Source: Pyrolobus fumarii 1A
Lineage (GTDB): Archaea; Thermoproteota; Thermoprotei_A; Sulfolobales; Pyrodictiaceae
Assembly: GCF_000223395.1 (NCBI RefSeq)
Contig: NC_015931.1
Location: 480,001-512,000 of the forward strand
Reading direction: 5' to 3'
Length of the DNA stretch: 32,000 nt
Part shown: positions 4,355 through 29,196 of the stretch, one piece after another
Layout: each line of letters starts with the position of its first letter
How positions within the stretch are numbered: the first letter of the stretch is position 1
Made by a program: the position numbers and the translations under genes
Notes under the pieces: model-generated
Seen by the model: only the letters and a program-made list of their open reading frames with translations
What the model was told of the DNA's origin: nothing
Databases searched by the model: none

Positions 4355-4495
4355 CTGGCCGGGGGTGCCAACAGGGATGTCTCTAGCGGCTCGCTCTCAC
4401 TACAGAGTTGGGGAGCGTTGCGGTTTTGAGTAGGCCGCTAGGGGGTGGATATACTGCGAGCCCCACTCTGGCTGCGCCGTTGCGTGTGGCGGGCG

Positions 4496-4855: not shown

Positions 4856-4859
4856 GGTA

Positions 4860-5270: not shown

Positions 5271-5412
5271 CCGGGGGACCCCACTAGCAGGGGCCGCGTG
5301 AGAGGCTACTATGGGGCTTACAGCCGGGCACATCCCCGGGCGCACGGGCGAGAAGGGCGCGGCCAGAACCGTCGGTGTTGAAAACGCCTCGTGTAGACCC
5401 AGAAGCCGAGAG

Positions 5413-5979
5413 CTAGGGCAGTAGTTTCTCGCCCATCTTGCCCACCCTACAGGTTTCCTCAATAGCCTTGATGAACGTCTCTACGCGTCGCACATCCGTG
5501 CATATGAAGAGTTTCAACCCGTCGGCCTCAATGTAGAGGCCCGTGTCGCACCTCCCGTCTATGAGCGCGTAGTAGCGTGTACCGTTTCGCGCCCTGAAGA
5601 GGCCAAACGCGGCTGTGAGCTCGGCCCCGCACACCCGGGCCGCGGGCCACAGTGGGTCGCCCCGCCCCACCCGCACGACCCTACAGCCGCCCCTCACGAT
5701 GGCCTCGCGCACCCTCAGGCAACTCACGTACCTCGCGTGGACTAGCCCATCCAACACCTCGACTCCCAACCACTCGGCCCTCCGGAGGTACCACGCGTAG
5801 CCAACAAGCAACACCTGGATTGCCACCAGGAGGACGAGTACAAGGATCAGGGCGAGATCCGGGCCTCCGAGCACGAGGAGCAGGAGGAGGACCGGCGTGA
5901 CGATAAGCAGGGTTATGCCAGCGATCTGCAAGACCATACCCGAGTAGATATGCGCGTCGATGCGCAGCGAGGCACGCAT
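5413..5979 (-). CDS. Membrane protein, two N-terminal TM helices plus a C-terminal beta-rich (PH-like?) domain. Start is probably internal (5979 or 5937).
   Basis: Hydrophobic stretch LQIAGITLLIVTPVLLLLLVLGG...LILVLVLLVAIQVLLVGYAWY, followed by a soluble ~110-aa domain. No family motif recognised. Confidence 0.5.
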   Translation of the reverse strand: MRASLRIDAHIYSGMVLQIAGITLLIVTPVLLLLLVLGGPDLALILVLVLLVAIQVLLVGYAWYLRRAEWLGVEVLDGLVHARYVSCLRVREAIVRGGCRVVRVGRGDPLWPAARVCGAELTAAFGLFRARNGTRYYALIDGRCDTGLYIEADGLKLFICTDVRRVETFIKAIEETCRVGKMGEKLLP

Positions 5980-6110
5980 GCCACGCGGCACCCCGATAAT
6001 GATTGACGGTTGTTGGCTCCCTTCGGGTCTATGTTGTCTAGTCCTAGCGTTATAACGCGACCTTGGAGAGTGTCGCCCGAAACCCGGTAATATTGTACCC
6101 ATATTGACGT

Positions 6111-8101: not shown

Positions 8102-8197
8102 AACATAATTCATTCTTGGTTGTTCGCCGGTATCACCTCGCGCACGGCATCCTGCGTCACCAGCCTCGCTAGGGAACAACCAAGAATGAGTTGAAAG
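8102..8197. repeat. Orphan inverted pair of CRISPR-repeat-like sequences flanking a 47-48-nt segment
   Basis: 8102-8125, aacatAATTCATTCTTGGTTGTTC, has array orientation and a degenerate 5' end. 8173-8197, GGAACAACCAAGAATGAGTTGAAAG, is the reverse complement of the array repeat with 2 mismatches. Positions 8107-8125 can pair with 8174-8192 over 19 bp including one G-U. Confidence 0.85.
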
Positions 8198-9605: not shown

Positions 9606-9776
9606 GTGCAGCGTGCGGAGAAGATACCGTGGAGAAGGATTGTCGACTGGGTTTTCAGGGAGTATAGGTGGGAGCTTGACATCCTACGCGAGTATGACAG
9701 GAGCGGCAGGCTTCCGAGCAGAGAGGAAGTTGAGAGGCTGAAGAGCAGAGCTAGGCGTGTTGCAGCCACTCGATAA
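9606..9776 (+). CDS. Candidate 56-aa ORF, below the track threshold, convergent with doc
   Basis: Hand translation from GTG 9606: VQRAEKIPWRRIVDWVFREYRWELDILREYDRSGRLPSREEVERLKSRARRVAATR, stop at 9774-9776. The composition is protein-like, but it overlaps the doc 3' end by 26 nt. Confidence 0.25.
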   Translation: MQRAEKIPWRRIVDWVFREYRWELDILREYDRSGRLPSREEVERLKSRARRVAATR

Positions 9777-10158
9777 GATCCTCGATGCTCCACTCGCCAC
9801 GCGCGACCCGGATAGCCGCCTCGTATGCAGACGCGGGTTGCCTGACCCGATTCGCTTTGAGGAAGGCCCTTAGGAGTACAACCGCAAACCTCTTGTTACC
9901 GTCTGTCAGCGGGTGGCGCGTTATAGCCTCGTAGAATAGCGTTGCAGCGGCTATAATCTTCTTCACCCTGCACGAGCTTCTCGTGTACCGTGCTGCGTAC
10001 CTGGCGCTCTCGAGGATAGACTCTAGCGCATCAACCGAGACAACGGCTATATGGTCCCGTGGGTAGTGCCTACAAAGCTCCTCGACGATGTATAGTAGCA
10101 GGCTGACTGAAGGATAGCGTATCACGCACCGTTTTCTCCGAACCTTCTTCCTCGCCAA
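9751..10158 (-). CDS. doc: Doc/Fic-family toxin (death-on-curing type)
   Basis: HPLTDGNKRFA matches the Doc variant of the Fic motif, HxFx(D/N)(A/G)NKR. 135 aa, a typical Doc size. Confidence 0.8.
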   Translation of the reverse strand: MARKKVRRKRCVIRYPSVSLLLYIVEELCRHYPRDHIAVVSVDALESILESARYAARYTRSSCRVKKIIAAATLFYEAITRHPLTDGNKRFAVVLLRAFLKANRVRQPASAYEAAIRVARGEWSIEDLIEWLQHA

Positions 10159-10161
10159 CCC

Positions 10162-10365
10162 TCACCGCCTCTTCGAGGCTGCAAGGAGCCCCAGGATGAG
10201 GGCGGCGAGCGTCAGGAGACCCGCGGCGGCGACAGCCAGCTTGAGCCGGAGGTCTAGCTGGGCGCTCCTGGGCATCTGGTTCCAGTCGATGTACATCTGT
10301 AGGAGAGTCGCGGCGGCGACGAGCGCAGAGCTGAGCGCAGCGAGTATGCCCGTCGAGCGTCTCAT
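10162..10365 (-). CDS. Small 2-TM membrane protein
   Basis: 67 aa with two hydrophobic helices (ILAALSSALVAAATLL; LAVAAAGLLTLAALILGLLAA). Its stop is 4 nt from the doc start. Confidence 0.45.
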   Translation of the reverse strand: MRRSTGILAALSSALVAAATLLQMYIDWNQMPRSAQLDLRLKLAVAAAGLLTLAALILGLLAASKRR

Positions 10366-10541
10366 CTCTTACCCCTCGTTGCTAGCTTTGCAGCGATGAA
10401 CGCTACGAGGAAGAGGGTGAGGAGCAGCGCCCCAAGCATCACGGCGAGGCAGCGTGCCTGCTACTACCAGCTTGGGTGCTAGCACGAGCAGCGCCACCAG
10501 CGGCGCGAGGATGAGCAGCAACCAGAGCACGGCTCTACACC

Positions 10542-11090
10542 CTACTTCCTTACTAGCATCAGGGGTATGACTAGGAGTGAAAGTATGCCAGCGCCGAGGG
10601 CGAGTGGCACCAGCCATGGTATTTGCTCGACAGCCGAGGCTGTGGTCACAAGCAGCTTGTAGACCGCCGGCTGGTTGACGAGTACAACGGTTGCAATGAT
10701 ACACGCGAGTATCAACGCTATTATGATCGCGATTGTGACTGCACCAAGTTGTGCTTCCTGCACATGCACGCCATAGAGGCTCCATAGCTCATCATATGTT
10801 AACCTCTTCCCTATGATAGTAGCGTCGTGACTGTACTCGCAGTAGAGGGGGTTGCACGTCTTACAGTTCACGGCGTTCGGCACGAAGATAGAGGGGTGTG
10901 CGGACAAGCCGGGGGCGGATGTCAATAAGTGCTTCGAGGTAGAGACGTGGTACAGCTGCTCTACAACCACAACCACTACAACAACCGCCACGACTACCAC
11001 AACTAGTAGCATAACAGCAACGACAAAGTCGAGCACCAGTGACACAACAATCCCGCCGCCAGCGGCGACACTACCCTGGGGGAACAACAA
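10542..11090 (-). CDS. Polytopic membrane protein with a poly-Val TM helix and a Cys-containing loop
   Basis: VVAVMLLVVVVVAVVVVVVVV, then the loop NCKTCNPLYC, then 2-3 further TM helices. Confidence 0.5.
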   Translation of the reverse strand: MLFPQGSVAAGGGIVVSLVLDFVVAVMLLVVVVVAVVVVVVVVEQLYHVSTSKHLLTSAPGLSAHPSIFVPNAVNCKTCNPLYCEYSHDATIIGKRLTYDELWSLYGVHVQEAQLGAVTIAIIIALILACIIATVVLVNQPAVYKLLVTTASAVEQIPWLVPLALGAGILSLLVIPLMLVRK

Positions 11091-11173
11091 GACAACAACC
11101 TACGCCGCTGTTGCGCAGCAGCGCTACTGCTCCTACCGGCGCTGCTCTTCTTCCTCGCACGCAGGTAGTTTTC

Positions 11174-11518
11174 TCACGCCCCGATCTCCTCGAGGCTCCT
11201 CTTCACTTCCCTCGGCAGGTGCTTCTGGATCACCGGGGCGTATAGGATCACGAGGAACGAGACCAGGAAGGCTAGGAGTAGGAGCTCACAGGCCGTCACC
11301 TCTAGGGGTTTGACGGCGCCAGTAGCCCTGTTGACCAGGTAGAGGGTCGCCACGGTCCTATCCAGCCCGCCCAGCCTGTAAGCCAGGGCGAAAGACTTCC
11401 CCACGAGGAGAGACGCGAGCATACTCTTCCTGAAGCTCCCGGTCTTCAGGTAGACAACACTCCACACGAGGAACATACCGAAGGCGAACACCACCCAGGC
11501 CAGGCTGCTAGCGTCCAC
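11174..11518 (-). CDS. Membrane protein (3-4 TM helices)
   Basis: Hydrophobic segments throughout the 114-aa ORF. Its start overlaps the upstream small ORF by 11 nt. Confidence 0.45.
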   Translation of the reverse strand: MDASSLAWVVFAFGMFLVWSVVYLKTGSFRKSMLASLLVGKSFALAYRLGGLDRTVATLYLVNRATGAVKPLEVTACELLLLAFLVSFLVILYAPVIQKHLPREVKRSLEEIGA

Positions 11519-11666
11519 CGTCTACACCCGCCAGCCTCTGGAGTCTCCTCAGGGCCTCACTCCTCTCGATCCTACCCTCTATGAAGTCCTCGAGCACCTT
11601 CTCGGCTTTCCGCCGGTCTCTAGCCCTGAGAGCCAGGCGCACCATCTCCCACGCGCGTCTCCTCAT
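11508..11666 (-). CDS. Small helical protein, third member of the F-x-E-G-R/K-I paralogue family (ORF open to 11750; ATG 11666 preferred)
   Basis: MRRRAWEMVRLALRARDRRKAEKVLEDFIEGRIERSEALRRLQRLAG. The ATG at 11666 lies just after the PIN stop at 11672. Confidence 0.5.
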   Translation of the reverse strand: MRRRAWEMVRLALRARDRRKAEKVLEDFIEGRIERSEALRRLQRLAGVDGGR

Positions 11667-11671
11667 CTCGA

Positions 11672-12112
11672 CTACCCTCGGGTTAGGCACCTCTCCCCAC
11701 CACTCCCATGGTTGATACAGCAGAGACCCAACTCTATAGCCTTGTTGCAAGCCCCCTTGTCAGAGGTTACCATGTACTCTGCGCCTATCATCTTAGCCGC
11801 AAGTATATGCGCATAGTCGAAGATGGTGTTGATGCTCGCATGGGGGCCTGCAAGGTCTCTAGCTTCGCTTAGCAAAGCCAACACCGGGACCCTGTAGATG
11901 CGGATGTCATAGCGCCTAGCGATACTCCTAGCGACAAACCCCTTTTCATACTGTCTATACTCGAAGACGAGCACCGTACTCGTGCAGATAACCCCTCTAT
12001 TACGCCTGGCGAAGCTAACCGCCTCACTCCTCTCCTCGCTAAGATCCACGAAGAAATTCGTGTTCACGTAGTACTTGCAGCGTCCCCTGCGCCTAGATCT
12101 CCTCTTCGCCAA
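11672..12112 (-). CDS. PIN-domain protein (VapC-like toxin)
   Basis: YVNTNFFVDL (first acidic residue) and ...AEYMVTSDKG (distal Asp) at the spacing typical of PIN domains. 146 aa. Its start overlaps the upstream gene by 20 nt. Confidence 0.65.
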   Translation of the reverse strand: MAKRRSRRRGRCKYYVNTNFFVDLSEERSEAVSFARRNRGVICTSTVLVFEYRQYEKGFVARSIARRYDIRIYRVPVLALLSEARDLAGPHASINTIFDYAHILAAKMIGAEYMVTSDKGACNKAIELGLCCINHGSGGERCLTRG

Positions 12113-12458
12113 TCCCCTCTACCTCTTCGAGGCTCTTCTCGAGCTCATCCACAGAGACCGGGATGCCCCGCTCCGCTGCACGTCTAGCAGCCGCTAGCAG
12201 GGCGGCCACCCTCGCGGACGGCGGCGGCGGGCCCCTAGGCTGCCTCAACCATTCCGTCAAGAGGTGTTCCCAGAGCTCGGCAGCCCACTCTGGGGCATCC
12301 AGCACGTCAAACTCGGTGTCGGGGGCTAGAGCAGCGGTGGTGTCTAGGATCTCGGCGGCGCTCAGACTCGTTGCAACAGTCTTCAGGTTCTCGCGGAACT
12401 CCTTCTTGCTGCGCCTGAAGATGCGTAGAACCTGGCGGGGCTCAGCACCTAGATCCAC
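12093..12458 (-). CDS. Hypothetical acidic protein upstream of the PIN gene (candidate antitoxin)
   Basis: Call is by position only (overlaps the PIN start). No DNA-binding motif recognised. Confidence 0.4.
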   Translation of the reverse strand: MDLGAEPRQVLRIFRRSKKEFRENLKTVATSLSAAEILDTTAALAPDTEFDVLDAPEWAAELWEHLLTEWLRQPRGPPPPSARVAALLAAARRAAERGIPVSVDELEKSLEEVEGIGEEEI

Positions 12459-12538: not shown

Positions 12539-12783
12539 TCTCCAATTCATTCTTGGTTGTTTCGTGGCGCTCATCGTCTCGTAGGCCTTGACTATGGTCG
12601 GCCTCGACTTCTTTCAATTCATTCTTGGTTGTTTCATATGGGGTGAGGTGTTGATATGGGGCGAAGTTGAGAATTATGCCAGAATAATCTTTCAATTCAT
12701 TCTTGGTTGTTTCTCTGCTCTCCCTCTTCTCCACCATATTCTCGATGTGCTCCTCTAGCTTTCAATTCATTCTTGGTTGTTTC
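12539..12783 (-). CRISPR. CRISPR array 1: 4 repeats and 3 spacers (47, 53, 45 nt). crRNA sense is on the minus strand.
   Basis: Repeats at 12539-12563 (degenerate: TCTCC instead of CTTTC), 12611-12635, 12689-12713 and 12759-12783. Plus-strand consensus is CTTTCAATTCATTCTTGGTTGTTTC. The minus strand reads GAAACAACCAAGAATGAATTGAAAG, ending in the ATTGAAAG tag. Confidence 0.95.
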
Positions 12784-12802
12784 GTCCTACAGTATCAGTA
12801 GG

Positions 12803-13216
12803 GTGTTTGCTGCCGCGAGGGGCATAGCCAAGGGGCTTCTCGCTGTACGGGAGGAGCGCGTCTACCGCGGGCGTAGGGTCGTGGTAACCGGCTACGACCT
12901 CGTAGAGTTGTTGACCCTCATTGCAACGGTTGCCGACCCCGAGGCTCGGAAGAGAGTAGCCGAGGCCATAGCCGACGGGAACGCCGAGGCCGCCAGGCGC
13001 GTAGAGGAGAGGATGGTTGAGTACGTGGCGTCCGTCGTGGAGTCGCCGGACCCCCTGGCCGCGCACGTGGCTCAACGCGTAAACGAGGAGTGGTACGCCA
13101 GGTTCGCGGAGTTCATCCAGGAGCCGGACTACATGCGTTTCTTGCGCCGGCGTTTTTCCCACTCGCGGCGCAGCTTCTCCTCGGCTATCCGCCTAGCCCG
13201 CTCCAGCTCACTTTGA
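12803..13216 (+). CDS. Hypothetical helical protein (start GTG 12803 or later). The track ORF start at 12707 lies inside the array and is an artefact.
   Basis: The middle part is protein-like (DPEARKRVAEAIADGNAEAARRVEERMVEYV...EEWYARFAEFIQEPDY). The 3' end overlaps the convergent membrane-protein gene by 88 nt. Confidence 0.35.
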   Translation: MFAAARGIAKGLLAVREERVYRGRRVVVTGYDLVELLTLIATVADPEARKRVAEAIADGNAEAARRVEERMVEYVASVVESPDPLAAHVAQRVNEEWYARFAEFIQEPDYMRFLRRRFSHSRRSFSSAIRLARSSSL

Positions 13217-13893
13217 GTCAACCCTAATGAGCGTGCAAGCTCCACCGCGAGCTCTAGCCCGAGGCGCTTGCCAATCGGCACTAGGACTTCATCCGCAATC
13301 AGAGCAGCATAGTCGCCGTCGTACTGGGCGAGCTTCCACCAGAGCCACTCGATGCTATCCGTCACCCAGAGAAGCGGCGCGAGCACCGCAGACACCACTG
13401 TAACGAGGAACCAGTCTAGCGGTAGGCGGCCCCCCACGAGCGCCAGTAGCAAGGGGGCCGCGGCTGCCACGGCGGCCTCCGCTGCAGAGGCCCCGGCCCA
13501 CCCCTCGTCGCTAGGCCTGCCCAGGAGCGCTATCGGTATACCGAGGTAGAGCAGCCCGCCCACCGGCGCGGTTAGCAATGCAGCCGCGGCATGATGTGCC
13601 CCCAGCGCCCCGGCCACCAGGCCGAGCGGCACGGCAGCCAAGCCAGCCCAGAAGGCGTCGCCCAGCACATTCGCCCTAGTGACGAACATGGATAGTGGAG
13701 CCAACCCCAGGGTGTCGTCGGCGAACCACCATAACAGTAGCAGGTAGAGCGCGACCAGCACCGTACCCGCGGGTAGCTCGAACCCGCCCAGCACCAGGTG
13801 GACGGGCCAGAGCGCCAGCGTCTCGGCCAGCCAACCCAACAGTTGTAAAGCCTGGGCTTCTACCATCGTAAACCCCGGGTTACACCCGACCAT
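13129..13893 (-). CDS. Polytopic membrane protein with a charged C-terminal helix
   Basis: Multiple hydrophobic helices, then ...ELERARRIAEEKLRREWEKRRRKKRM. No family recognised. Confidence 0.5.
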   Translation of the reverse strand: MVGCNPGFTMVEAQALQLLGWLAETLALWPVHLVLGGFELPAGTVLVALYLLLLWWFADDTLGLAPLSMFVTRANVLGDAFWAGLAAVPLGLVAGALGAHHAAAALLTAPVGGLLYLGIPIALLGRPSDEGWAGASAAEAAVAAAAPLLLALVGGRLPLDWFLVTVVSAVLAPLLWVTDSIEWLWWKLAQYDGDYAALIADEVLVPIGKRLGLELAVELARSLGLTQSELERARRIAEEKLRREWEKRRRKKRM

Positions 13894-13930
13894 CCACGAC
13901 CACTTATACCCCGGGTTAGTCGCGAGTACA

Positions 13931-14623
13931 TCAAGATGGTGTGCGGGCTAGTACCCAACCGTCAGATGCTCTTCGCCCCGGTCCGCCAACGGGGGTGTGC
14001 ATGTGTGCGCCGACTGAGCTGTTACCTAACATGCTGCGGAAGAGCTTGTAGGCCTCATTACTCAGCTCCTCGAACACTTGAGCCGCGACGCCTTGGCGTG
14101 CGGCTATACCGGCAAGGACGAGGATGACAGCCGCTTTGACATATTCGCCCTTGCCAATCTCGCACCGGAGGTACCTATCGATGATGGTTAACGCGCTGGC
14201 AACCGACGCGAAGAATGCTGCAGCCTCCTCGGTGAACCTACCCTCCCCCAGCTCCTTGGCGAAGAGGCGGCACCAGATGCAATCCCACAACTCTTCTACC
14301 TCGGCTTTCACGGCCGCCGGTGTGGAGCCATCCAGGAACCTGGGAGCGTCTCGAGCGAGCTCGGCTAGCCTCTCCTCCAAGAGCGCCAGGGCTTCGTGGA
14401 CACGCCCCGCCCTAACTAAGGGCGAGACCTCCTCCTCAACCCTGCTCAACCACTCCTCAATCACACTGCGGGGTAGGATGCGCGACTCCCGCCTAAGCGA
14501 GTAGACAGCCACCGCGGCGAGTACAACATCCTCATCCACACAAGCGGGCACGGGAACCACCATCACAAAACTGCATGAACGATTGTTATCCCTTCTTGGC
14601 TCCTCGGGGTGCCGAGGCGTCAA
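13931..14623 (-). CDS. Hypothetical helical protein (start possibly the ATG at 14563)
   Basis: ORF with balanced composition. No motif recognised. Confidence 0.4.
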   Translation of the reverse strand: MTPRHPEEPRRDNNRSCSFVMVVPVPACVDEDVVLAAVAVYSLRRESRILPRSVIEEWLSRVEEEVSPLVRAGRVHEALALLEERLAELARDAPRFLDGSTPAAVKAEVEELWDCIWCRLFAKELGEGRFTEEAAAFFASVASALTIIDRYLRCEIGKGEYVKAAVILVLAGIAARQGVAAQVFEELSNEAYKLFRSMLGNSSVGAHMHTPVGGPGRRASDGWVLARTPS

Positions 14624-14657
14624 TGTGCATACGGTGCTGTTCCCGACCGACCCGGGG

Positions 14658-14664
14658 TATAAGA
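14658..14664 (+). promoter_or_regulatory. TATA-like box for the 14700 gene
   Basis: GGGGTATAAGAGG, with TATAAGA 36-42 nt upstream of the GTG start. GGTG SD-like element at 14692-14695. Confidence 0.35.
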
Positions 14665-14699
14665 GGTAGGAGGCTACGGGCGGTCGTTCACGGTGGGTC

Positions 14700-16424
14700 G
14701 TGGTGGGTAGGCTGGTGCTCTACGCTGCCGCGGCGGCTGTGGGTGTGTACATCGGCCTCCTCGTAGTCGCGCTCATCGCGTCCGTGCACGAGCAGCCCCA
14801 GAGGCCGGAGGTGCACGTCTACATCTACAACCGTGAGGCCTGGGAGGCGGCCCGGCGGCAACACGAGGTCACCCCGGTGGAGCTGGCGGAGGCCGTCCGT
14901 AACGGTACTCTGCTTGTCTCTCCGCCCGCCGGCCCCGGGCTGGCGTCCAGAGGCGAGCCCAGGGTACCCTACCCGCTCTGGGCCAGGATGAAGCCCGTGG
15001 ACGTGAGCGACCCGCGGGTACGCGGGTACCTGGAGTGGGTGCTGGGGCTCATCCGGGAGGGGGCCAGGAACCCCAAGAGCTACGGGTTCGACGACGCTGT
15101 GGTGCTCCCGAGGAGGGCTAGCCTGGAGCCACCCGCACCCATAGCGAACGCGACGGCCAGGATAGGCACCGTGCTCCTGCCCTACGGGTTCGCCGTCACC
15201 ACCGTCATCTACCCGTGCGGCCCCACGGGCAGCCCCGGCCTATGCGCGGTAGTCCACATGTACGCGTGGAACAAGACGGGCCTGGCGAGGATGGTGGTGA
15301 GGGCGATGGGGGTGGAGCAGTTGTTGGCGCCCCCACCCCGGCGCATGGGGAAGCTCGAATGGTTTGAGAAGCGGATACTCTGGGTCGTGGAGTGGCCGGT
15401 CGACCCGAGACACTCCGCCGTCCTCGCTTACAACGGGTCTAGGGTGGCGAGGGTCACGAGGGTCTACGTGGTGCTAGAGGAGCCGCTCATAGAGATGCTG
15501 GGGATACCCAGCCCAACCGGGTTCCTCTCCAGGGCGGCGAAGTGGTTCTGGGCGCTCTCCGGGGTAGCCGGGGGGATAGCCACCTGGCTCAGCGGCGCCG
15601 GCTACCATGAGGTGGCGGACACGCTTGTCCGCCGCGGCCTCCTGGCGTACAAACTGCACTACACGTATAGGGTGGCGTGGACCACCGGGGAGCCCTACCG
15701 GCTCATCCAGCGGCAGGGCGGCGTCTGCGAGGACTACGCCCTGGCGACACTCATGCTAATATCTGGGCTGGGGAACGAGCCCGCGGTGCTAGAAGTGGGT
15801 ATAGTCAATAAAGAGGGGCATTTCGCCGCGGGCCTACTAACGACGCTGGTGGACTGCGGGCTGTCCACAGACAAGTTCGTGGACCTCCCGGCCCCACTGC
15901 CGGTGTGCACCAGGGGCTACGTGAACTACGTGGACACCGCGAGCATGCCCACATCCCACTACAAGAGGCCGGTGTTCGTCCCGCCCTTCCTCATCCCCGA
16001 CGCCCTGGACTACTGGTTCCTCTGGAGGGGGTTCGTGGACAAGCTCCCATGGTGGCTGGTGAGCCCCTACGCGGCCAACACGACCCTGGGCCGTGAGGGT
16101 ACACGCTTCGTGATGGAGGTGGCGGCGAACTACTCCTGCACCCCCAGCATAGCCTGGCGTAGTGTCTACCCGCTGGCTGTGGGGGACGTGCTGGAGCAGG
16201 ACGCGGGGCTGGCAAGGAGCTTCGCCAGGTACGTGAACGCCACGCCCACCGGCGAGAGGCTCACCCCGCCCCCGCCAACCGTCTACAGGGCCGGCGACCC
16301 GACCCCACCCGACGTGAGACTCGACTACTCCCTGCCGGGCGACTTCCGAGTACCGGACCACGGCATCTTCTTGACAGAATGGGAGGCGCACCAGTGCCCA
16401 CCCGAGTTTAGCCGCGACACCTAG
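14700..16424 (+). CDS. N-terminally membrane-anchored large protein with a possible transglutaminase-like Cys-protease core
   Basis: N-terminal TM (LVLYAAAAAVGVYIGLLVVALIA). GGVCEDYALATLMLISGLGNEP...EGHFAAGLL...STDKFVD resembles the Cys-His-Asp spacing of transglutaminase-like folds. Confidence 0.5.
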   Translation: MVGRLVLYAAAAAVGVYIGLLVVALIASVHEQPQRPEVHVYIYNREAWEAARRQHEVTPVELAEAVRNGTLLVSPPAGPGLASRGEPRVPYPLWARMKPVDVSDPRVRGYLEWVLGLIREGARNPKSYGFDDAVVLPRRASLEPPAPIANATARIGTVLLPYGFAVTTVIYPCGPTGSPGLCAVVHMYAWNKTGLARMVVRAMGVEQLLAPPPRRMGKLEWFEKRILWVVEWPVDPRHSAVLAYNGSRVARVTRVYVVLEEPLIEMLGIPSPTGFLSRAAKWFWALSGVAGGIATWLSGAGYHEVADTLVRRGLLAYKLHYTYRVAWTTGEPYRLIQRQGGVCEDYALATLMLISGLGNEPAVLEVGIVNKEGHFAAGLLTTLVDCGLSTDKFVDLPAPLPVCTRGYVNYVDTASMPTSHYKRPVFVPPFLIPDALDYWFLWRGFVDKLPWWLVSPYAANTTLGREGTRFVMEVAANYSCTPSIAWRSVYPLAVGDVLEQDAGLARSFARYVNATPTGERLTPPPPTVYRAGDPTPPDVRLDYSLPGDFRVPDHGIFLTEWEAHQCPPEFSRDT

Positions 16425-16543
16425 ACCCCGGCGCACCCACCCCCACCCCTCCTCCACACCCGCGCTCACCCGGCACCCAGCCCCACACCAGCCATCCTCG
16501 CACCCTCCACACCCTACGCGCCCCGCACCCCCGAGGACGCCGC

Positions 16544-16667
16544 ATGCTGCAAACCATTGTGCACTCGGGGGCGCTCCCCGCCACCCGGGGGCCTGGAGGG
16601 CGGCCACACACAGCCCAGGGAGGGGCCCAGGAGCCCACAGCGGAGCAGCCATGTTGCAAACCATGGT
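16544..16667 (+). repeat. Two copies of the ATGTTGCAAACCATGG motif (left cluster)
   Basis: 16544-16560 ATGCTGCAAACCATTGT and 16651-16667 ATGTTGCAAACCATGGT, in GC-rich non-coding DNA after the stop of the 14700-16424 gene. Confidence 0.8.
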
Positions 16668-16846
16668 ACACACATGGGGCACCTCCAGGGCCCCTCTCCC
16701 CCGCCGCCGCCCGGCGCGCACGTAGACGCGTGGACGACCCCAGACGCCGCCAGAGTAGACCCTACCATCTTCCAGCTGGAGATGATGGTGTACCAGTGCC
16801 CACCGGGGGAGGAGTCCTAGCGCCCCGCGTGCGGCTGCAGGGTGGC

Positions 16847-17293
16847 CTACGGGGAGGTGGTTGCGCTTATGGCGTACTCGGGGTACGCGCTGTACACGTA
16901 GCGGAGGAGCTCGAAGGGCTTATCGGCCCACAGGCGGACCAGCCTCTCCATCTGCTCGAGGAAGTGGGGCTCCTCCCTCCTCAGCCTCTCCACTATCTCC
17001 TCGTAGAGCCTCCTCCCCTCCCCGGTCAGCTCGAAGACGTAGACGGTGTATGCTCCTCCATGAGAGGGCTCGGTGTGCACCCTCACCAGGCCCCGCCTCC
17101 TCGCCTCGTCGACGCCCCTCGCCAGCTCCGCGGAGACCGGGCCGTAACGGGTGGGTGTGTACCCCAGGCAGCAGCCGCCCGCCTCAACGACGCCCAGGAA
17201 CCCGAGCTTCTGGAGAACCGTGCCGCCACGCAGCCGCCCGCCGGCGAGCCCCACGAGCAGCACAACCCACTCGACGGGCGATAGCCTGGCCAT
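16847..17293 (-). CDS. Putative winged-helix DNA-binding protein
   Basis: 148 aa. LSPVEWVVLLVGLAGG...GTVLQKLGFL...YGPVSAELARGVDEARRRGLV...YVFELTGEG resembles a wHTH followed by a helical C-terminal domain. It is the only convincing ORF in 16.4-18.1 kb. Confidence 0.5.
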   Translation of the reverse strand: MARLSPVEWVVLLVGLAGGRLRGGTVLQKLGFLGVVEAGGCCLGYTPTRYGPVSAELARGVDEARRRGLVRVHTEPSHGGAYTVYVFELTGEGRRLYEEIVERLRREEPHFLEQMERLVRLWADKPFELLRYVYSAYPEYAISATTSP

Positions 17294-17704
17294 GAGTAGA
17301 CACCCCGAAAACCGGGCGTGGGCTGGGGGCGGCGCCCCTCTACCCCCGGAGCCCGATTAGCGCCAGGGTAAACGCGGCTAGGGCGATGCCAGCCAGGGTG
17401 AGGGTCTGTATGGCGAACTGCCCCGCGTAGACTGCTATGCGGTCAGACCCATCCACGCTCCCACCCTCCAGGGGACGGGGCCGGAGGCGCCGGTATACAC
17501 TCTTCCCCAGGGCCCTCACCGCGCGTCCTCGGGCCTCGCCGCCGAGTACTTCTCGACGAGCTCGCGTCCTCAAGGTTGGCTCCTCGTGCGGCGGTTGCCG
17601 GCGTAGACACCCGGTAGACCATCTGCCCAACTGCTCCGAACTCGCTCCCCGTGGGGGTGGCGTTGAAGGCCCCGGCTGGGGCCGCTCCCAACACCCACAC
17701 CCGC

Positions 17705-18040
17705 ATGTTGCAAACCACGGCACCCCTCCGTACCCAGGCCCCAGGTGGGCGCTGGGCAGCAACCGCGGGCAAGGGCATGTTGCAAACACCGGGGCCCCGA
17801 GACCCGCACCCCCCACGGGCCGGGGTCGCGTCAGCTGGGGCCGGAGGCCACCGGCCACGCCGCGAACCGTGGGGCGCTACCCTTCCCAGCCACACGCCGG
17901 GGGCGGAAACGGGCCAGAGCCGGGGCCTACGGGGAGACGGTGACGTTGCAAACCATGGTGCCCCTGGCTCCGTTCGCACGGGGCTTGGGGGGTGCACGAG
18001 CCCGGCTCCGGGCACCAGACCCCATGTTGCAAATCATCGT
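17705..18040 (+). repeat. Quasi-periodic cluster of the ATGTTGCAAACCATGG motif (right cluster)
   Basis: Copies start at 17705 (ATGTTGCAAACCACGG), 17777 (ATGTTGCAAACACC), ~17857 (degenerate, ACGCCGCGAACCGTGG), 17943 (ACGTTGCAAACCATGGTG) and 18024 (ATGTTGCAAATCATCGT). All are in the same orientation. Spacings are 72, 80, 86 and 81 nt. A related GTGTTGCTTGTACACGG forms the start of the 18084 ORF. Confidence 0.8.
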
Positions 18041-18083
18041 CTACTCTCTCACGCTCTCCGGGGCACGGTTATAGCCGCGTGGG

Positions 18084-18737
18084 GTGTTGCTTGTACACGG
18101 CATGAGGAGGGGCGTGTATACCGCGGCGTTCCTGCTGCCCTACCTCCGGGGGCGTCCCCGGAGGGGCGCCTCCCCCAGGCGGATAGTCATCTGGCAGTCT
18201 AGCAGCGAGTTCATCGAGGCGCTTAGGGGGGCGCTGGAGAGGGACGGGTTCGACCCGGGGAGGGTGATGGTCGTCAACGTGTACGCGACGAGGGTTAAGG
18301 GGAGGGTGTACCGTCGACTGAGGGTCGTGCTCCTGGAGCCGGTGGCGAGGAGGGTCTACCGCCTCCTCTACCCGAGGGTCAAGCCCGTCATCTACAGGTT
18401 CCAGGGTGCGAGGATGATGCTGAGGACCGCGCTGAGGGTGACGAGGGTGAGGGGCGCGAGGCTCGAGGGGCTCCGGAGGAGGCTGCTGCGCTCGGGGCTA
18501 GCAGCCACCGACATCGACCCGGTGTGCCGGGTGCCCGGCTGCCTGGCGGCGAGGCTAGCCAGGGGGAGGAACCCCTTCCTAGCGGCCTACCACAGCTGTA
18601 TGAGGCGCTACGAGTGGCTCCCCTTCGAGGAGAGGGAGGGCTACTGCATCTACACGGCCTATGAGGAGGTGGGCGGCGACCCGCCGCACTGGGCGAGGAT
18701 GATGTACGAGAGGGTCAGGGCGAGGCTATTCGGGTGA
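18084..18737 (+). CDS. Arg-rich hypothetical protein
   Basis: 217-aa ORF, very basic (many RR/RxR). Contains CRVPGC...HSC, a possible metal-binding motif. GTGA stop/start overlap with the next gene. Confidence 0.45.
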   Translation: MLLVHGMRRGVYTAAFLLPYLRGRPRRGASPRRIVIWQSSSEFIEALRGALERDGFDPGRVMVVNVYATRVKGRVYRRLRVVLLEPVARRVYRLLYPRVKPVIYRFQGARMMLRTALRVTRVRGARLEGLRRRLLRSGLAATDIDPVCRVPGCLAARLARGRNPFLAAYHSCMRRYEWLPFEEREGYCIYTAYEEVGGDPPHWARMMYERVRARLFG

Positions 18738-19000
18738 CGGGCGTGGCGCCCTCCGACGCGGGGCTGGAGGCGAGGAGGCTCGAGGGCGAGGCTAGGGCGG
18801 CGCGCGAGAAGATACGCGCGTTCGAGGAGAGGTACGGGATGTCCTCGCGGGAGTTCCTGGGGCGGTTCCTCCGCGGCGAGCTGGGCGACGAGCAGGACTT
18901 CATCGAGTGGTGGGGTGAACTCGTCTTCCTCGAGGAGGCGGAGAGGGGGCTGGAGGAGCTGAGGAGGGCTGAGCGGGGCGGGGAAAAAGAGCGGGGCTAG
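18734..19000 (+). CDS. Small antitoxin-like helical protein
   Basis: EKIRAFEERYGMSSREFLGRFLRGELGDEQDFIEWW resembles a pattern (FE-x-KYGMSSEEF...GEL-x-D-x-DF-x-W) that I recall from small archaeal TA-associated proteins. The family was not verified. Confidence 0.45.
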   Translation: MTGVAPSDAGLEARRLEGEARAAREKIRAFEERYGMSSREFLGRFLRGELGDEQDFIEWWGELVFLEEAERGLEELRRAERGGEKERG

Positions 19001-20994
19001 CCCTGCGGCTGGACACCCACCAGGTAGAGGATGTAGTCGTGGCTGGCGGGCGCAACCGCGTCTATCGGGACGCCCTCCGGCACGTAGTTGAACCAGGCTT
19101 CGGCGGCCTGGCCGACATCCCTCGTGAACACCTCGGCTCCCGTGGTGGCGTCGGCCAGCGTCGCCGTGACACTGGCGACCGGCTTGATGTTATGGATGTG
19201 TAGGAAGACCGGCGCACCGTAGACTCTGAAGAGGGCCTCGTCCCCAGGCATGACGATGAGGTGTGTCAGCGCGACTAGGCTGCCGCAGCCTTCGAGCCAG
19301 CCGCCGCACGCCCAGCCTGGGTGCACGCGCAGGTAGATGGTCGCCGGGCCCTGGACGAGCAGCGCGAGCCTATGCACGTTGCCGGACGTGAACGTGTAGA
19401 CGCTGCTAGTGTTAACCATACCCTCCGCCCTAGCCGCGATGATTGGGTTGGCGTAGCCGGTGTCGACCTCGACGAACGGCGGCTTCGCCCAGCTCGTGAT
19501 GGGCGTGTAGAACTCGGCGACTATGATGTGCCTCCCGTCCGGGACCCTCACCGCAAGCTCCGCCCAACCATCCGACTCGGACGTGGCGGCGACGAGCAGC
19601 GACGGCTCTACGGCTGAGTACGTGTCCCACAGCAGCCTCTCGAGCCACGCGTTCACAGCTATCCTGGATAGGCTGTAGGGGTTGCCACCGTTCCCGTAGA
19701 GCGGTAGGGCTACAACCGCGTTGCCGGACGCCGAGATGGTAAGCCCGTAGCCGGCAGCGGCCCTAGAGTACCTCGCGTCTATCTGCGACGCTTGTGGCTC
19801 CGGCGTTGCCCTAACCGCCCCGCCCTCCAGCCACACGATGCGGTCGATGACGCCGGGGACGTGTATGTACGGGTCCAGCAGCACGTCCGACTTCAACGTA
19901 TCGATGGTGGTGATAGCAGCGTGCCAGTAGAGCTCCGGCGGCTCGAAGCGCCCGGTGGAGGCGTCGAGGTGGCCGAAGGGCAGCGGGAGCCTGAACGTCG
20001 CGACGGGCAGGCTGCCCGTACGATACACGAGTATCTTCGAGAGGACGGCCGCCGCGTCGCTGAACTCCGGTGTATCGTCGCACGGGTTGAGGATGTAGGC
20101 GCGTATGCGGAGCCTATACTCGCCGCCGGTGGAGTCCAGGGCTAGCACCGGCGCGAGCTGCACCACGGTGTCACTAGTGTAGTTGAGGCAGATGACGGTG
20201 GTGCAGTCTGTGCCCCACGTCTCGCCGGGGCGGTCTATCACCGCCCTGGCGGCGACGCTCCCGTCGGGCGAGACGACCTCGACGACAATCCTCACGGTCA
20301 GCTTGTTGTCACCATCTTTGTCATCGTAGGTGAAGACGGGGACTACGACGACCCTGCCGCTTGGCAGGCTCAGCGGGACGATGACCTCCAGGAGCGGCTC
20401 CTCGGAGGCCAGTGTACAGACGTTGCCCTGCCAGAGCAGCTTGAACGTGTCGTCGCACGCGGCGTAGAGGACGACGCCCGAGTGCGCCGAGCTCCCGCCG
20501 GATAAGGTACTCTCGAGGTTCAGCCCGCGGGCGAGGGCAGCGTATCTACCGTCGCTCATCGGGCCCTTTACGCCCGGCTTCGGGTATGCGTCACAGTGCG
20601 GCAGGTAACTCCTGGCCACCACAACGCCGTCCGCGATAAGCTCCATCGTGGTGTTCCACTCGCCGGGGATACGAGCCGTCTTGTCGACACCCAGCCCGAC
20701 GTACGGCGCGTAGAGCCACGAGAAGTCGATGACGTAGCTGGATGGTTGGCCTCCCTGGTCAATATCCGGCCAACCCACCTGGTATGGTACCTCCGGGAGG
20801 TCTATGTCGAGGTGCACCACGCTGCCCGGCCTCGGGTCTGTGATAGCCCGGAAGCTCCTCTCCGCCCACCGGTACGCGAGGAACGCCTGGGCGGTGTCGT
20901 TCTCCGACGTGTGCGTCAGCGGCGTCACGACGTGGGCGCGGTACCGTACTGCGCCGGTGACGGTGCAGGGCCCCACGCCGGGTATCCTCGCCAC
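18997..20994 (-). CDS. Large (665 aa) beta-rich hypothetical protein with no TM or signal peptide. It starts 60 nt downstream of the array 2 trailer, on the same strand.
   Basis: Long ORF with balanced, strand-rich composition and a GTG start at 20994. No catalytic motif recognised. Confidence 0.6.
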   Translation of the reverse strand: MARIPGVGPCTVTGAVRYRAHVVTPLTHTSENDTAQAFLAYRWAERSFRAITDPRPGSVVHLDIDLPEVPYQVGWPDIDQGGQPSSYVIDFSWLYAPYVGLGVDKTARIPGEWNTTMELIADGVVVARSYLPHCDAYPKPGVKGPMSDGRYAALARGLNLESTLSGGSSAHSGVVLYAACDDTFKLLWQGNVCTLASEEPLLEVIVPLSLPSGRVVVVPVFTYDDKDGDNKLTVRIVVEVVSPDGSVAARAVIDRPGETWGTDCTTVICLNYTSDTVVQLAPVLALDSTGGEYRLRIRAYILNPCDDTPEFSDAAAVLSKILVYRTGSLPVATFRLPLPFGHLDASTGRFEPPELYWHAAITTIDTLKSDVLLDPYIHVPGVIDRIVWLEGGAVRATPEPQASQIDARYSRAAAGYGLTISASGNAVVALPLYGNGGNPYSLSRIAVNAWLERLLWDTYSAVEPSLLVAATSESDGWAELAVRVPDGRHIIVAEFYTPITSWAKPPFVEVDTGYANPIIAARAEGMVNTSSVYTFTSGNVHRLALLVQGPATIYLRVHPGWACGGWLEGCGSLVALTHLIVMPGDEALFRVYGAPVFLHIHNIKPVASVTATLADATTGAEVFTRDVGQAAEAWFNYVPEGVPIDAVAPASHDYILYLVGVQPQG

Positions 20995-21054
20995 GAGGTG
21001 GATGACGTACGGTGGCTTGTCGCTCCTACAGACGACCGGTAGGGTCGTGTCGTT

Positions 21055-22240
21055 CTTTCAATTCATTCTTGGTTGTTTCTACTATCCCCCATGCTGCAAG
21101 AAGCGCAGGATGTGTAACCTTTCAATTCATTCTTGGTTGTTTCATGGGAGTAGGAGCCGCTTCACGACCATCACCATCCTCGCTTTCAATTCATTCTTGG
21201 TTGTTTCGCACGCTACCTCACCCGGGTCACGCGCGCCACTATCACCCAGCAGGTGCTTTCAATTCATTCTTGGTTGTTTCGCGAGGCCTACGATTATGTA
21301 GTCTTTGAGTGTGAAGCTCTTGCTTTCAATTCATTCTTGGTTGTTTCGAAGTTTATTGTCATTGGTCGACATAAGTTTACACCGATTCAGCTTTCAATTC
21401 ATTCTTGGTTGTTTCACAAGTACGGGAAGGGCATCAGCGGAATTGCCAAGTACCTTCTTTCAATTCATTCTTGGTTGTTTCACGATGTCGATGTATATCA
21501 TAAATGCTTTGGCGAGTGTAACCTTTCAATTCATTCTTGGTTGTTTCATCCTTCCCGACCCTGGGCGAGGCCTTCGGCCTCCCGCCGCTACTTTCAATTC
21601 ATTCTTGGTTGTTTCTGGAGGAGGACGTGGGGAGGGAGTACGACAGGGAGTACAACCCCTTTCAATTCATTCTTGGTTGTTTCATGGGTGTTGGAACACT
21701 CGAAGAAGCTTGACGAGCTTAAACTTTCAATTCATTCTTGGTTGTTTCGTCTAGGGTATGGCGCGGCAATACAACACCAGGAGGTCTCTTTCAATTCATT
21801 CTTGGTTGTTTCTAATCTCGACTGGTCTGGGCACATTAACCCCCGATGGTATCTTTCAATTCATTCTTGGTTGTTTCCGTGTCTGGTATTGTAAGGATTG
21901 CGTACGAGAAGGGTATACTACGATTCGCAACTTTCAATTCATTCTTGGTTGTTTCACAATTACAACCCCAAGAAGCGTACAATAAAGCGGGGGGATAGCT
22001 TTCAATTCATTCTTGGTTGTTTCAGGAGGAGGTCGCGACGGTAGAGTCGCCACCGTACAACAACGTTACCTTTCAATTCATTCTTGGTTGTTTCCTGGGT
22101 CACCGCCTTCGGCGCAGACCCAGCGATTCTAGACGAGATCATCAACGCTTTCAATTCATTCTTGGTTGTTTCATGCGCTAGATCTAGCATTGCAATAGTA
22201 TATGCAATGAGCATCCTTTCAATTCATTCTTGGTTGTTTC
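21055..22240 (-). CRISPR. CRISPR array 2: 18 identical 25-nt repeats and 17 spacers of 39-53 nt. crRNA sense is on the minus strand, with the leader on the right.
   Basis: Repeat CTTTCAATTCATTCTTGGTTGTTTC starts at 21055, 21119, 21183, 21256, 21323, 21391, 21457, 21523, 21591, 21659, 21724, 21788, 21853, 21931, 21999, 22070, 22148 and 22216. The reverse complement ends in ATTGAAAG, the 8-nt crRNA 5' tag known from Sulfolobus and Pyrococcus. Confidence 0.97.
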
Positions 22241-22500
22241 TGCATTCTTGCCGTGTGGTTATAGGCTCTTCCCCATATTTATCTCTGCCTGTCTTGCCTT
22301 TGTTGGCGTGGCTGGGGAGGGGTAATGGGCTTCAACGGTGCCCTTGCGGGACGGTCCAGGGGTAGTACCGGGTTTATAAACGGGGCAAGGGTTAAATGCG
22401 GGTTCCCTGCGGTTAGGATGGTCTCGCTACCGCCGATAGTCCCGTGGGTGACGGTCCACAGGTAGTACCGGGGATTAAAAGGATTACGCTGAGGGGTAGA
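22241..22500 (-). promoter_or_regulatory. CRISPR leader with a tandem ~31-40-nt direct repeat carrying TATA-like boxes
   Basis: AT-richer non-coding DNA abutting repeat 18. 22350-22380 (GACGGTCCAGGGGTAGTACCGGGTTTATAAA) and 22450-22480 (GACGGTCCACAGGTAGTACCGGGGATTAAAA) match at 25/31 positions and lie exactly 100 nt apart. Confidence 0.6.
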
Positions 22501-22611
22501 AAAGGTTTTCGCGGGATGTGGTTTTGTAGTTGGTGTTGTGTTGGGTTGTTGTGTTGGTGTTGTATCGTGTTCTTATGGTAGTCTGGTGGTTGTTGTGTTG
22601 GGTGTCTTGTT

Positions 22612-24213
22612 GTGCGTGGTTGGGTTGTTCTTCCTCTGGTGTTGTTGATTGTTGTTCTGTTTGGCTGTGTTGTTGCGGGTGCTTCGCTTGTCATTGATGT
22701 GTTGGACTCTTATGTTGGGCTTTGGGATGTTAGTGGTGAGCCGCCGACGGTTATGGTTGCCGGTGTGGCTAGTGTGACCGATTATTACTATGGTGGTGGG
22801 GTGTTGGGGTGGAAGTCGGGTCCTCTGGACCTCTACGATCATATCGTTCTCGTGATTGGACCGTTTCACGAGTATGTTGCCTACGCGTGGGTGGAGGTAA
22901 GGCTGGATTATGGTACTGGCGTCTTTTTCATAGACGAGTTTAACGATGATGATCTTGCGACGTCGGGCGGCTCCCACACGGTCTACAACACGTTGTACTC
23001 GCTGTTTGGCGACCCTAGGGTTGCTTACACGCCCGGCGAGGCTATAGACACGCCGGAGGAGCTAGGCTTCCGCGTCTACTGCGACCGCGATATCGTCAAC
23101 AACGCGCCCTACTGTTTCATCATAACCGGGTTCGCGCCAGCACTCTACGTAAGCACACCCGGTGTGCACGTGCTGTTCGCGAGAGTCTACGCCTGTATGT
23201 GGGACTGGCAGAGGCAGGTGATAACACGTTGCGTGTACGACACCATGACGTACACGTTCACCGTGAGGACGACGCTGCTCGACTGGCGCACCACCATAGA
23301 CCAGCTGGTCTCCTTCCTACTGCTCAACATGACTTCCACCCTCGGCAGGATAGAGGCTAGCGTCTCAACCCTAGGCAGGATGGCAAGCAGCATGAGGAAC
23401 ACGCTAGAGGCTGTAAGGACTAGCGTTGACCTCCTCGACGCGAAGCTTGATATGCTAGAGAGTGGCGTTGAGGCGGGGCTAGCCAGGCTCGAGAGGAGCA
23501 TAACGCTGGTCGTGTACAACGCCACTGGTAGGCTAGAGGGCGAGGTTGCGAGGATAACAATGAGGATAGAGGGGCTTAGCAGCGAGGTGAGCAGGGCAGC
23601 CACCGAGATACAGCGGAGGGTTAACGAGCTGGCAGAGACGCTGGCATCTCACGACCGCAACCTGACCATGATAGCCGAGGAGGTGACGCGTAGCCTAGAG
23701 GGCCTAGAGGTCTCCATGAACGCGACTAGAGAGGAGGTTAGACTAGTTGCCAGAAACGCCACCCTCCTAACCCTCGAGGTGGAGATTGTAAAGGACAAGC
23801 TAGACACGCTGGCAGACAACATAGTCGAGACGCTAGCCGCCATCGACAGGCTAAGATACGAGATGAGCATGCAGGGGACAGAACTCCAAGGCACGGTCAA
23901 CAACTTGAAGAGCACGGTAGCGAACAGCACGGCCAGACTAGAGACCCTCATGCGAGAGACGCGCAAAGCACTATCAAGCAGGATAGAAGAGCTAAACCAC
24001 ACGCTAATAACGAGCCTCGAGAGGCTAGCAGAGAAGCTAACCGAGAGCATAACAAGACAAGCAGCCACAACGAACAGGACCATAGCCGAGCTACAGGAAC
24101 GCCTAGAGAACGTCTCCCATGAACTCGGAGCAATGTACATACAGCAAGCCGCGACCCTAACCGGCGCAATAGCGGCATCCGCCACAGCAATACTCCTAGC
24201 GCGAAGAAGATAA
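22612..24213 (+). CDS. Surface coiled-coil protein with N-terminal and C-terminal TM anchors
   Basis: N-terminal TM (VVLPLVLLIVVLFGCVVAG), a ~210-aa globular domain, then ~290 aa of heptad-like sequence with 9 N-x-S/T sequons, then a C-terminal TM (LTGAIAASATAILLARRR). Confidence 0.65.
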   Translation: MRGWVVLPLVLLIVVLFGCVVAGASLVIDVLDSYVGLWDVSGEPPTVMVAGVASVTDYYYGGGVLGWKSGPLDLYDHIVLVIGPFHEYVAYAWVEVRLDYGTGVFFIDEFNDDDLATSGGSHTVYNTLYSLFGDPRVAYTPGEAIDTPEELGFRVYCDRDIVNNAPYCFIITGFAPALYVSTPGVHVLFARVYACMWDWQRQVITRCVYDTMTYTFTVRTTLLDWRTTIDQLVSFLLLNMTSTLGRIEASVSTLGRMASSMRNTLEAVRTSVDLLDAKLDMLESGVEAGLARLERSITLVVYNATGRLEGEVARITMRIEGLSSEVSRAATEIQRRVNELAETLASHDRNLTMIAEEVTRSLEGLEVSMNATREEVRLVARNATLLTLEVEIVKDKLDTLADNIVETLAAIDRLRYEMSMQGTELQGTVNNLKSTVANSTARLETLMRETRKALSSRIEELNHTLITSLERLAEKLTESITRQAATTNRTIAELQERLENVSHELGAMYIQQAATLTGAIAASATAILLARRR

Positions 24214-28641: not shown

Positions 28642-29196
28642 GTGGAGATGCGTCCCGCGGAGACCAGCTTTACCGTGCTTCGGGGAGGTTGTAAGTGGGC
28701 GTCGGGCTTGACCAGCATAGTTGCTCTCCGGCTTCCTCGCAGCGTGGTTGAGAGGCTGGAGCGCGAGGCTAGAGGGCTTGGCATGGGTCTAGAGGAGTAC
28801 GTGTTAGAGCTTCTCCTGCATGACCTGGATCCGCCGGAGCGTGTGAGAGAGTACATCGAGGCCGCTAGGTTACTCCTTCAACGGGCTCGGGAGGAGCTAG
28901 AGAAGGGGGATGTTAGGCAGGCTGCTGAGAAGGCGTGGGGGGCTGCTGCGCTGGCTGTCAAGGCCTACGCGGCGTGGAGGGATGGGAGGAGACTAGCGAG
29001 CCACGGCGAGCTATGGGAGTACAAGAGGAGGCTGGAGAAGGAGCTTGGAGAGTGGGTTCACGACGCTTGGATGAACGCCACGGGGATGCACGTGTGCTTC
29101 TACGAGGGGTGGTGTACGCGGGAGGATGTGGAGAAAGCTTTGGAGAGAATCGGGAGGCTGGTAGGTGAGATCGGGAAGCGTGTAGGGGCACGGTAG
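28642..29196 (+). CDS. PaREP1-like protein with an RHH-like N-terminus (true start probably the TTG at ~28708)
   Basis: EKAWGAAALAVKAYAAWRDGRRLASHGELWEY matches the PaREP1-family core as I recall it. The N-terminal VALRLPRSVVERLEREA resembles a ribbon-helix-helix strand. Confidence 0.6.
   Translation: MEMRPAETSFTVLRGGCKWASGLTSIVALRLPRSVVERLEREARGLGMGLEEYVLELLLHDLDPPERVREYIEAARLLLQRAREELEKGDVRQAAEKAWGAAALAVKAYAAWRDGRRLASHGELWEYKRRLEKELGEWVHDAWMNATGMHVCFYEGWCTREDVEKALERIGRLVGEIGKRVGAR

Follow-up and report, generated by a model that had tools for sequence, protein, structure and literature searches.

Two same-repeat CRISPR arrays in Pyrolobus fumarii, probably parts of one array separated by 8.3 kb of acquired DNA

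Two arrays that share one repeat

The DNA analysed here, a 32-kb stretch of the chromosome of the archaeon Pyrolobus fumarii 1A (the window), carries two CRISPR arrays, one on each side of a block of genes, and we consider whether the two arrays were once a single one. Array 1 (12539–12783) has four repeats and three spacers, array 2 (21055–22240) has 18 perfect repeats and 17 spacers, and the gap between them (12784–21054) measures 8271 nt. An exact scan found the 25-nt repeat CTTTCAATTCATTCTTGGTTGTTTC at 12611, 12689 and 12759 in array 1 and in 18 copies in array 2. The repeats of both arrays all lie on the same strand, and no chance matches were expected. The remaining copy in array 1 (12539–12563) differs from the repeat by three mismatches, all among its first five plus-strand bases. 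It is the sole degenerate copy within the two arrays and stands at the far end of array 1. Spacers are 45–53 nt long in array 1 and 39–53 nt in array 2, and all are distinct. These observations confirm what a first-pass annotation, made from the sequence without database searches, had reported: that both arrays carry an identical 25-nt repeat in one orientation, with these coordinates, counts and gap, and that the distal repeat of array 1 is the only degenerate one, that of array 2 being perfect.

On the minus strand the repeat reads GAAACAACCAAGAATGAATTGAAAG, beginning with GAAAC and ending at its 3′ end with ATTGAAAG. The latter is the well-known 8-nt 5′ handle of CRISPR RNAs (crRNAs) that derive from archaeal repeats processed by Cas6. 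The repeat 3′ end, together with the genes for Cas11a, Cas7 and Cas5a, fixes the minus strand as the sense strand of both arrays, and the degenerate copy is therefore the 3′, or trailer, end of array 1. These three minus-strand genes encode Cas5a (522–1451; NCBIfam cas_cas5a, E 9.5e-6), Cas7/Csa2 (1459–2715; Pfam DevR/Csa2, E 1.4e-54) and Cas11a/Csa5 (2722–3084; PADLOC Cas11a, E 1.3e-77). They identify a type I-A effector module as the cas context of the arrays; adaptation genes are absent from the window. The arrays thus have the properties of type I-A CRISPR loci, namely regular identical repeats, unique spacers of similar length, the crRNA handle and nearby cas genes of the matching subtype. 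The genome paper, which describes a single finished chromosome of 1,843,267 bp with 54.9% G+C, gives “CRISPR repeats 0” (PMC3156397), whereas the window carries 22 repeats and a type I-A cas module. The published record of P. fumarii, which lists no CRISPR repeats, is corrected accordingly.

Array 2 is adjoined by a minus-strand leader of 371 nt (22241–22611; 52.6% GC). This stretch is intergenic, because the 533-amino-acid open reading frame (ORF) that runs from 22612 matches a called gene. On the sense strand of the leader, a TATA-like ATAAATAT at 22275–22282 ends 34 nt before the first repeat and is a candidate promoter element. The 100 nt upstream of array 1, which are 64% GC, contain no AT-rich 8-mer and no TATA-like box, and they show no similarity to the leader of array 2. 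Instead, 19 nt separate the first repeat of array 1 from the start of the coding sequence of a gene termed p137, whose conservation is seen in two homologues. Because this adjoining upstream stretch is coding, array 1 has no leader of its own. Two further observations of the first-pass annotation, that only array 2 has an adjacent non-coding leader and that array 1 abuts coding-like sequence unlike that leader, were upheld by these results.

The leader of array 2 also contains a 32-nt direct duplication (22341–22372 and 22441–22472; 84% identity), with a TATA-like box after each copy (TTTATAAA and ATTAAAA). A G/T-rich low-complexity stretch at 22500–22700 (TGGTGTTGTGTTGG...) runs from the last part of the leader into the beginning of the 533-amino-acid gene, whose product is a coiled-coil membrane protein.

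A single-array history would explain why array 1 has no leader, why array 2 ends distally in a perfect repeat and why there is a lone degenerate trailer repeat, as well as the foreign, largely orphan cargo described below. We consider it probable that array 1 represents the trailer part and array 2 the leader part of a single type I-A array, parted by approximately 8.3 kb of horizontally acquired DNA. Alternatively, the two could be independent arrays, array 1 being a decayed remnant that lost its leader through overwriting, with the genes in between being ordinary variable-region chromosome that built up beside the CRISPR locus. Crenarchaea often have multiple arrays that share one repeat type. 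In P. fumarii, four different repeat types were counted in a later paper (PMC3597662), which implies that several arrays are present. However, independent arrays require the coincidence that array 2 ends with a perfect repeat exactly where foreign DNA starts. They also require a second coincidence, that the perfect repeat opening array 1 lies 19 nt from coding sequence and that no trace of a leader persists there. Moreover, a scan tolerating up to 10 mismatches found no degenerate trailer repeat for array 2. We therefore regard an independent origin of the two arrays as unlikely. The same scan found no decayed repeats inside 12784–21054, and none of the spacers in the window matched the block when we checked for self-targeting.

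Genes, composition and relatives of the block

The block between the arrays (12784–21054; 8271 nt) has an intact repeat at each end and contains at least eight genes, of which the two end genes face inward. At its left end, p137 (12803–13216, plus strand) encodes a small conserved protein with homologues P0010 (52%) and P0023, and has a GTG start at 12803. Conservation among the homologues (motif EERVYRGRRV) reaches 12851, upstream of a shorter start at about 12881 that is implied by a 111-amino-acid self-match in the database (P0006). A 5′ truncation of p137 at the junction was considered and rejected, as N-terminal length varies among the homologues. The next gene, p254 (13129–13893, minus strand), encodes a multi-pass membrane protein whose homologue P0007 (45–47% identity) has the same relative position on a metagenome contig, L007, described below. 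It is followed by p230 (13931–14623, minus strand), an orphan for which the HMMER search gave only a self match. This gene is flanked by a 27-nt inverted repeat (13899–13925 and 14641–14667; 85% complementary, with exact copies of CCCGGGGTATAAG) and is missing from the otherwise syntenic module on L007. It looks like a secondary insertion into a divergent promoter region, and the inverted repeat may reflect a duplicated promoter or a small inserted sequence. To its right, p574 (Pyrfu_0534; 14700–16424, plus strand) encodes a membrane-anchored transglutaminase-like protein, with a weak Pfam match to DUF553 and a UniRef name of transglutaminase-domain protein. It matches its L007 homologue with a tblastn E value of 5e-44, and in the alignment of the two sequences its candidate catalytic residues, C343, H374 and D412, do not vary.

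The right part of the block begins with p148 (16847–17293, minus strand), which encodes a winged-helix protein (PadR/Panacea-like; phrog_14939, E 2.6e-5) of a widespread archaeal family; it has more than 100 homologues, and members of the family match PadR, SocA_Panacea and F-93 WHD. Its gene is surrounded by six same-strand copies of ATGTTGCAAACCA at 16544–18036, where 0.19 would be expected, with none elsewhere in the window. These copies lie in apparently non-coding DNA of 70–72% GC and could be operator, iteron or centromere-like sites. Further right, p217 (18084–18737, plus strand) encodes an Arg/Cys-rich protein with a homologue, P0009, at 52–55% identity on contig L008; a sequence search of PDB with p217 was empty. 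The adjoining p88 (18734–19000, plus strand) encodes a small antitoxin-like protein that matches NCBIfam TumA (E 2.8e-7, below the curated cutoff) and PADLOC PDC-M44A (E 4.6e-8). The last gene, p665 (Pyrfu_0540; 18997–20994, minus strand), is an orphan whose product is 100% identical to that annotated for P. fumarii 1A; 60 nt lie between its start and array 2's distal repeat, and it is co-oriented with transcription of the array. Among 5.8e9 proteins p665 matched only itself, and it had no family match in Pfam, NCBIfam, PHROGs or PADLOC. AlphaFold models of p665 and p217 had a mean predicted local distance difference test (pLDDT) score of 33 and 47.6, respectively, too poor for a fold search.

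A word-indexed search gave no homologues for p574 or p665. In this type of search, queries of concatenated small proteins missed even their self matches, and the homologues reported here came from exhaustive HMMER searches. Scans of Pfam, NCBIfam, PHROGs and PADLOC, which covered the block ORFs judged likely to be genes, found no cas, integrase, transposase, replication, capsid or conjugation gene, in line with the earlier statement that the block has no recognisable cas gene, integrase or transposase. Rfam and tRNA scans of the window were also empty. The cargo is thus a mosaic, comprising an envelope module (p137, p254 and p574), a winged-helix regulator with six motif copies, an antitoxin-like protein, p217 and two orphans. 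It looks more like variable-region or plasmid-type DNA than like any recognisable virus.

In overall composition the block is 66.7% GC, compared with 58.4% and 61.2% in its two flanks and 54.9% in the genome. The first-pass annotation had suggested comparing GC and codon usage with the flanks, and the outcome differs along the block. In the five genes of 14700–20994, GC content at third codon positions (GC3) is 0.86–0.92, strongly elevated over the 21 flank genes (0.72±0.055, maximum 0.835). The block is not uniform, however, and the three genes of 12803–14623 have a flank-like GC3 of 0.68–0.79. Relative codon preferences of block and flanks remain correlated (r = 0.91), which would fit a hyperthermophile donor, and from its composition the cargo would derive from a donor pool of higher GC. 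The flank-like GC3 of the left part would suit two independent arrays with chromosomal variable-region DNA between them. So would the antitoxin-like and winged-helix genes in the block, given that the neighbourhood is itself a variable region rich in toxin–antitoxin genes (HEPN/nucleotidyltransferase, Fic and PIN).

The relatives of the block genes bear on its unity. Exhaustive HMMER searches found few homologues, at 45–57% identity, and the closest lie on contigs of 66–70% GC with GC3 of 0.80–0.92. One of these, L007 (ERZ27262668), is a 3.5-kb metagenome contig from ENA (66% GC) that keeps homologues of p137, p254 and p574 in the order and orientation of 12803–16424, with a GC3 gradient (0.80, 0.84 and 0.87) as in the block. 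Because this module crosses the compositional boundary of the block, the parts to the left and right of that boundary belong together. We found no CRISPR-like direct repeat on the whole 3.5 kb of L007, including the 300 nt beyond the p137 homologue. On L008 (GCA_054016795.1), a 10.7-kb contig (1–10723; 69.5% GC) of a metagenome-assembled genome, the p217 homologue sits between genes for T2SSE and HerA/TraG-like ATPases and one for a PD-(D/E)XK nuclease, a setting of the DNA-transfer or mobile-element type. L008 may be a conjugation or DNA-uptake island and could hint at the function of p217; it also encodes large FG-GAP and PEGA surface proteins. The p88 homologue lies on a chromosomal contig (L009) among PIN/AF2212 toxin–antitoxin genes.

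Megablast and tblastn searches of phage and plasmid collections with the block gave nothing relevant. The first-pass annotation had proposed such a search of virus and plasmid collections. When alignments of block proteins served as profile queries, genomes, metagenomes and viral contigs (IMG/VR) yielded no relatives, and the repeat was absent from the genome and metagenome contig collections that we scanned. In viral contigs, five single-copy matches to an 18-mer core of the repeat were found, approximately the level expected by chance; the one that we read in context has 24 of the 25 repeat bases and is solitary on a contig of 40% GC. No free or related element bearing a single host-type repeat was found among the viral contigs.

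Junctions and the possible route of entry

The block is bounded by perfect repeats, the left one ending at 12783 and the right one starting at 21055, as expected of a repeat-mediated integration. The block does not show the features of other elements. For a virus or plasmid integrated site-specifically, it has the deviating composition and lacks an integrase, attachment (att) repeats and hallmark genes; for an insertion sequence (IS) or transposon, it lacks a transposase, terminal inverted repeats and a target-site duplication; and for a casposon, no Cas1 was found in it and its ends carry no terminal inverted repeats.

The end genes start 19 nt (p137) and 60 nt (p665) from the left and right repeats and point inward. 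If the block were circularised, they would share a divergent intergenic region of approximately 80 nt, or approximately 105 nt with one repeat. No ORF restored by circularising the block emerged when the junction sequences were checked by hand. Additionally, CCTAC-N5-11-GTAGG occurs only twice in the 32-kb window, at 12786–12802 and 21025–21043 in the same orientation. These potential hairpins lie 3 nt past the repeat of array 1 and 11 nt before the terminal repeat of array 2. A lenient local alignment of the 40-nt junction flanks picked up a similarity (TCCTACAG..GTAGGGT) at P~0.01, a weak and post hoc value. The pair was rejected as a clean att core, because the two copies are centred differently.

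An intact repeat is present at each junction and the end genes face inward, which argues that recombination between repeats, with a circular element as the partner, is the most likely route by which the block arrived. A repeat copy on such an element would recombine with a repeat of the host array and leave the block between intact repeats. Illegitimate insertion into a spacer would be an alternative route. We also considered recombinase-free capture, either of a circular plasmid-like element with a single repeat or of an 8.3-kb “giant spacer” made by adaptation at the repeat that was then leader-proximal, and find it rather unlikely. In the giant-spacer version, 17 normal spacers would have been added after integration of the 8.3 kb; in either version, the identical flanking repeats could permit reversible excision.

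Array 2 would be read on the minus strand from its leader at 22241–22611. Past the 18th repeat, any transcript would enter the block, where the first co-oriented gene is p665. If a single array was split, its three oldest spacers, those of array 1, would be left without a promoter in front of them, and array 1 would now be silent or expressed via read-through only.

A third repeat locus at 8102–8197, overlooked in the first-pass inventory that correctly listed arrays 1 and 2, bears on a different possibility. It is an inverted pair (8102–8126 and 8173–8197) with 46 nt between the full 25-nt copies. The first copy contains an 18-nt core of the repeat in plus orientation (8107–8124), and the second is a two-mismatch copy in minus orientation. 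Both copies share a TTTC-to-TTC(C/G) change, and the region folds as a long hairpin (free energy change (dG) −24.4 kcal/mol, z −4.4). The pair could have been left behind when arrays were rearranged, or it could be a regulatory or decoy element derived from the repeat, and this inverted locus shows that repeat-mediated rearrangement has occurred nearby. It is therefore conceivable that recombination between repeats of different arrays, by inversion or translocation, moved a distal array fragment beside unrelated DNA, so that nothing was inserted at all, and the inverted pair would be a record of such events in the region. However, arrays 1 and 2 are direct and not inverted, and a rearrangement leaves the foreign composition and orphan content of the intervening DNA unexplained. 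We judge a rearrangement of this kind to be improbable.

We also asked whether the order of the segments could be an artefact of assembly, with repeat-bounded segments placed wrongly in the reference. Short-read contigs assembled independently from this strain match the window with 100% identity, and they stop at 12785 and 21078, at the repeats that flank the block. Look-ups of exact protein sequences yielded nothing but contigs of this strain. Because all of the short-read contigs break at repeats, they do not confirm the linkage of the segments. By contrast, the reference is a single finished chromosome of 1.84 Mb (PMC3156397), and one of the contigs (L001) joins the right end of the block to a repeat independently of the reference. 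The block therefore lies between repeats under any order of the segments, and mis-ordering is a very remote prospect.

Several observations weigh against the splitting of one array by insertion. Both the perfect terminal repeat of array 2 and a mini-array without a leader can have other origins, and the arrays compared are those in the window, the other arrays of P. fumarii lying outside the comparison. The left 1.9 kb of the block has a GC3 within the flank range. The flanks themselves lie 4–6 GC points above the genome mean, so that the baseline for calling the block “foreign” is itself atypical. Under standard scoring, no terminal direct or inverted repeat of the block was significant, and we found no att sites, target-site duplication or recombinase. 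Finally, genome, metagenome and viral collections yielded no relative in which the array is uninterrupted or the site empty. The proposal of the first-pass annotation that one ancestral array was split is thus consistent with the repeats, their orientation, the missing leader of array 1 and the foreign orphan cargo, and it remains unproven because no such relative or empty site was retrieved.

Known parallels and neighbouring genes

IS and transposon insertions occur in CRISPR arrays of Crenarchaea such as Sulfolobus, and in these, as in the arrangement proposed here, an array is interrupted and its distal part is cut off from the leader. Unlike such insertions, the P. fumarii block has no transposase, terminal inverted repeats or target-site duplication, and with 8.3 kb and at least eight genes it is too large and complex for a simple IS. 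Saccharolobus solfataricus offers a second comparison, as its locus F is a leaderless, inactive array beside active ones. Array 1 resembles locus F in being a short array of the same repeat family that has no leader and presumably does not acquire spacers. It differs in being co-oriented with a leader-bearing array 8 kb away that ends in a perfect repeat. This co-orientation and the perfect-repeat end of array 2 argue for physical splitting over independent decay.

Coding DNA inside an array has a bacterial precedent in erm(N), which sits inside the CRISPR-Cas9 array of Campylobacter coli (PMC11823653). There too, the repeats of a single array enclose coding DNA, spacers are present to either side, and the site has no dedicated recombinase. 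The C. coli case, however, is bacterial and type II and involves a single resistance gene, and many strains with variant arrays support it, whereas that of P. fumarii is archaeal and type I-A, with an 8.3-kb multigene block in a single genome. Integration of mobile elements into a host array by way of a solitary repeat unit or mini-array was envisaged by Faure et al. (2019), according to the summary in PMC8616872, and stand-alone repeats of host type are known in archaeal viruses and conjugative plasmids (PMC6858448). The P. fumarii locus is like the predicted product of that process, in that the block lies between intact host repeats, the distal spacers are severed from the leader and an integrase is unnecessary. 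It is unlike the proposal, which concerns viruses, in that the cargo has no viral hallmark genes and no free or repeat-bearing relative was found.

The event would thus be of a known kind, and the P. fumarii locus a further, tidy, as yet unproven example. If the splitting is real, the locus would be a clean archaeal case of an array taking in kilobases of foreign genes without a dedicated recombinase, with old spacers stranded and new genes placed under read-through from the leader. It would also offer a concrete place to ask whether repeats serve mobile DNA as recombination sites, which has hitherto only been proposed. If there are merely two arrays with variable-region genes between them, the arrangement is ordinary.

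Elsewhere in the window, the region between the cas genes and array 1 (3616–6102 and 9751–12458) is densely set with genes of toxin–antitoxin type, namely two pairs of HEPN and nucleotidyltransferase genes, a Fic/DOC gene and a PIN gene. Beyond array 2, a further HEPN-type gene of the PaREP1 family lies at 28642–29196.

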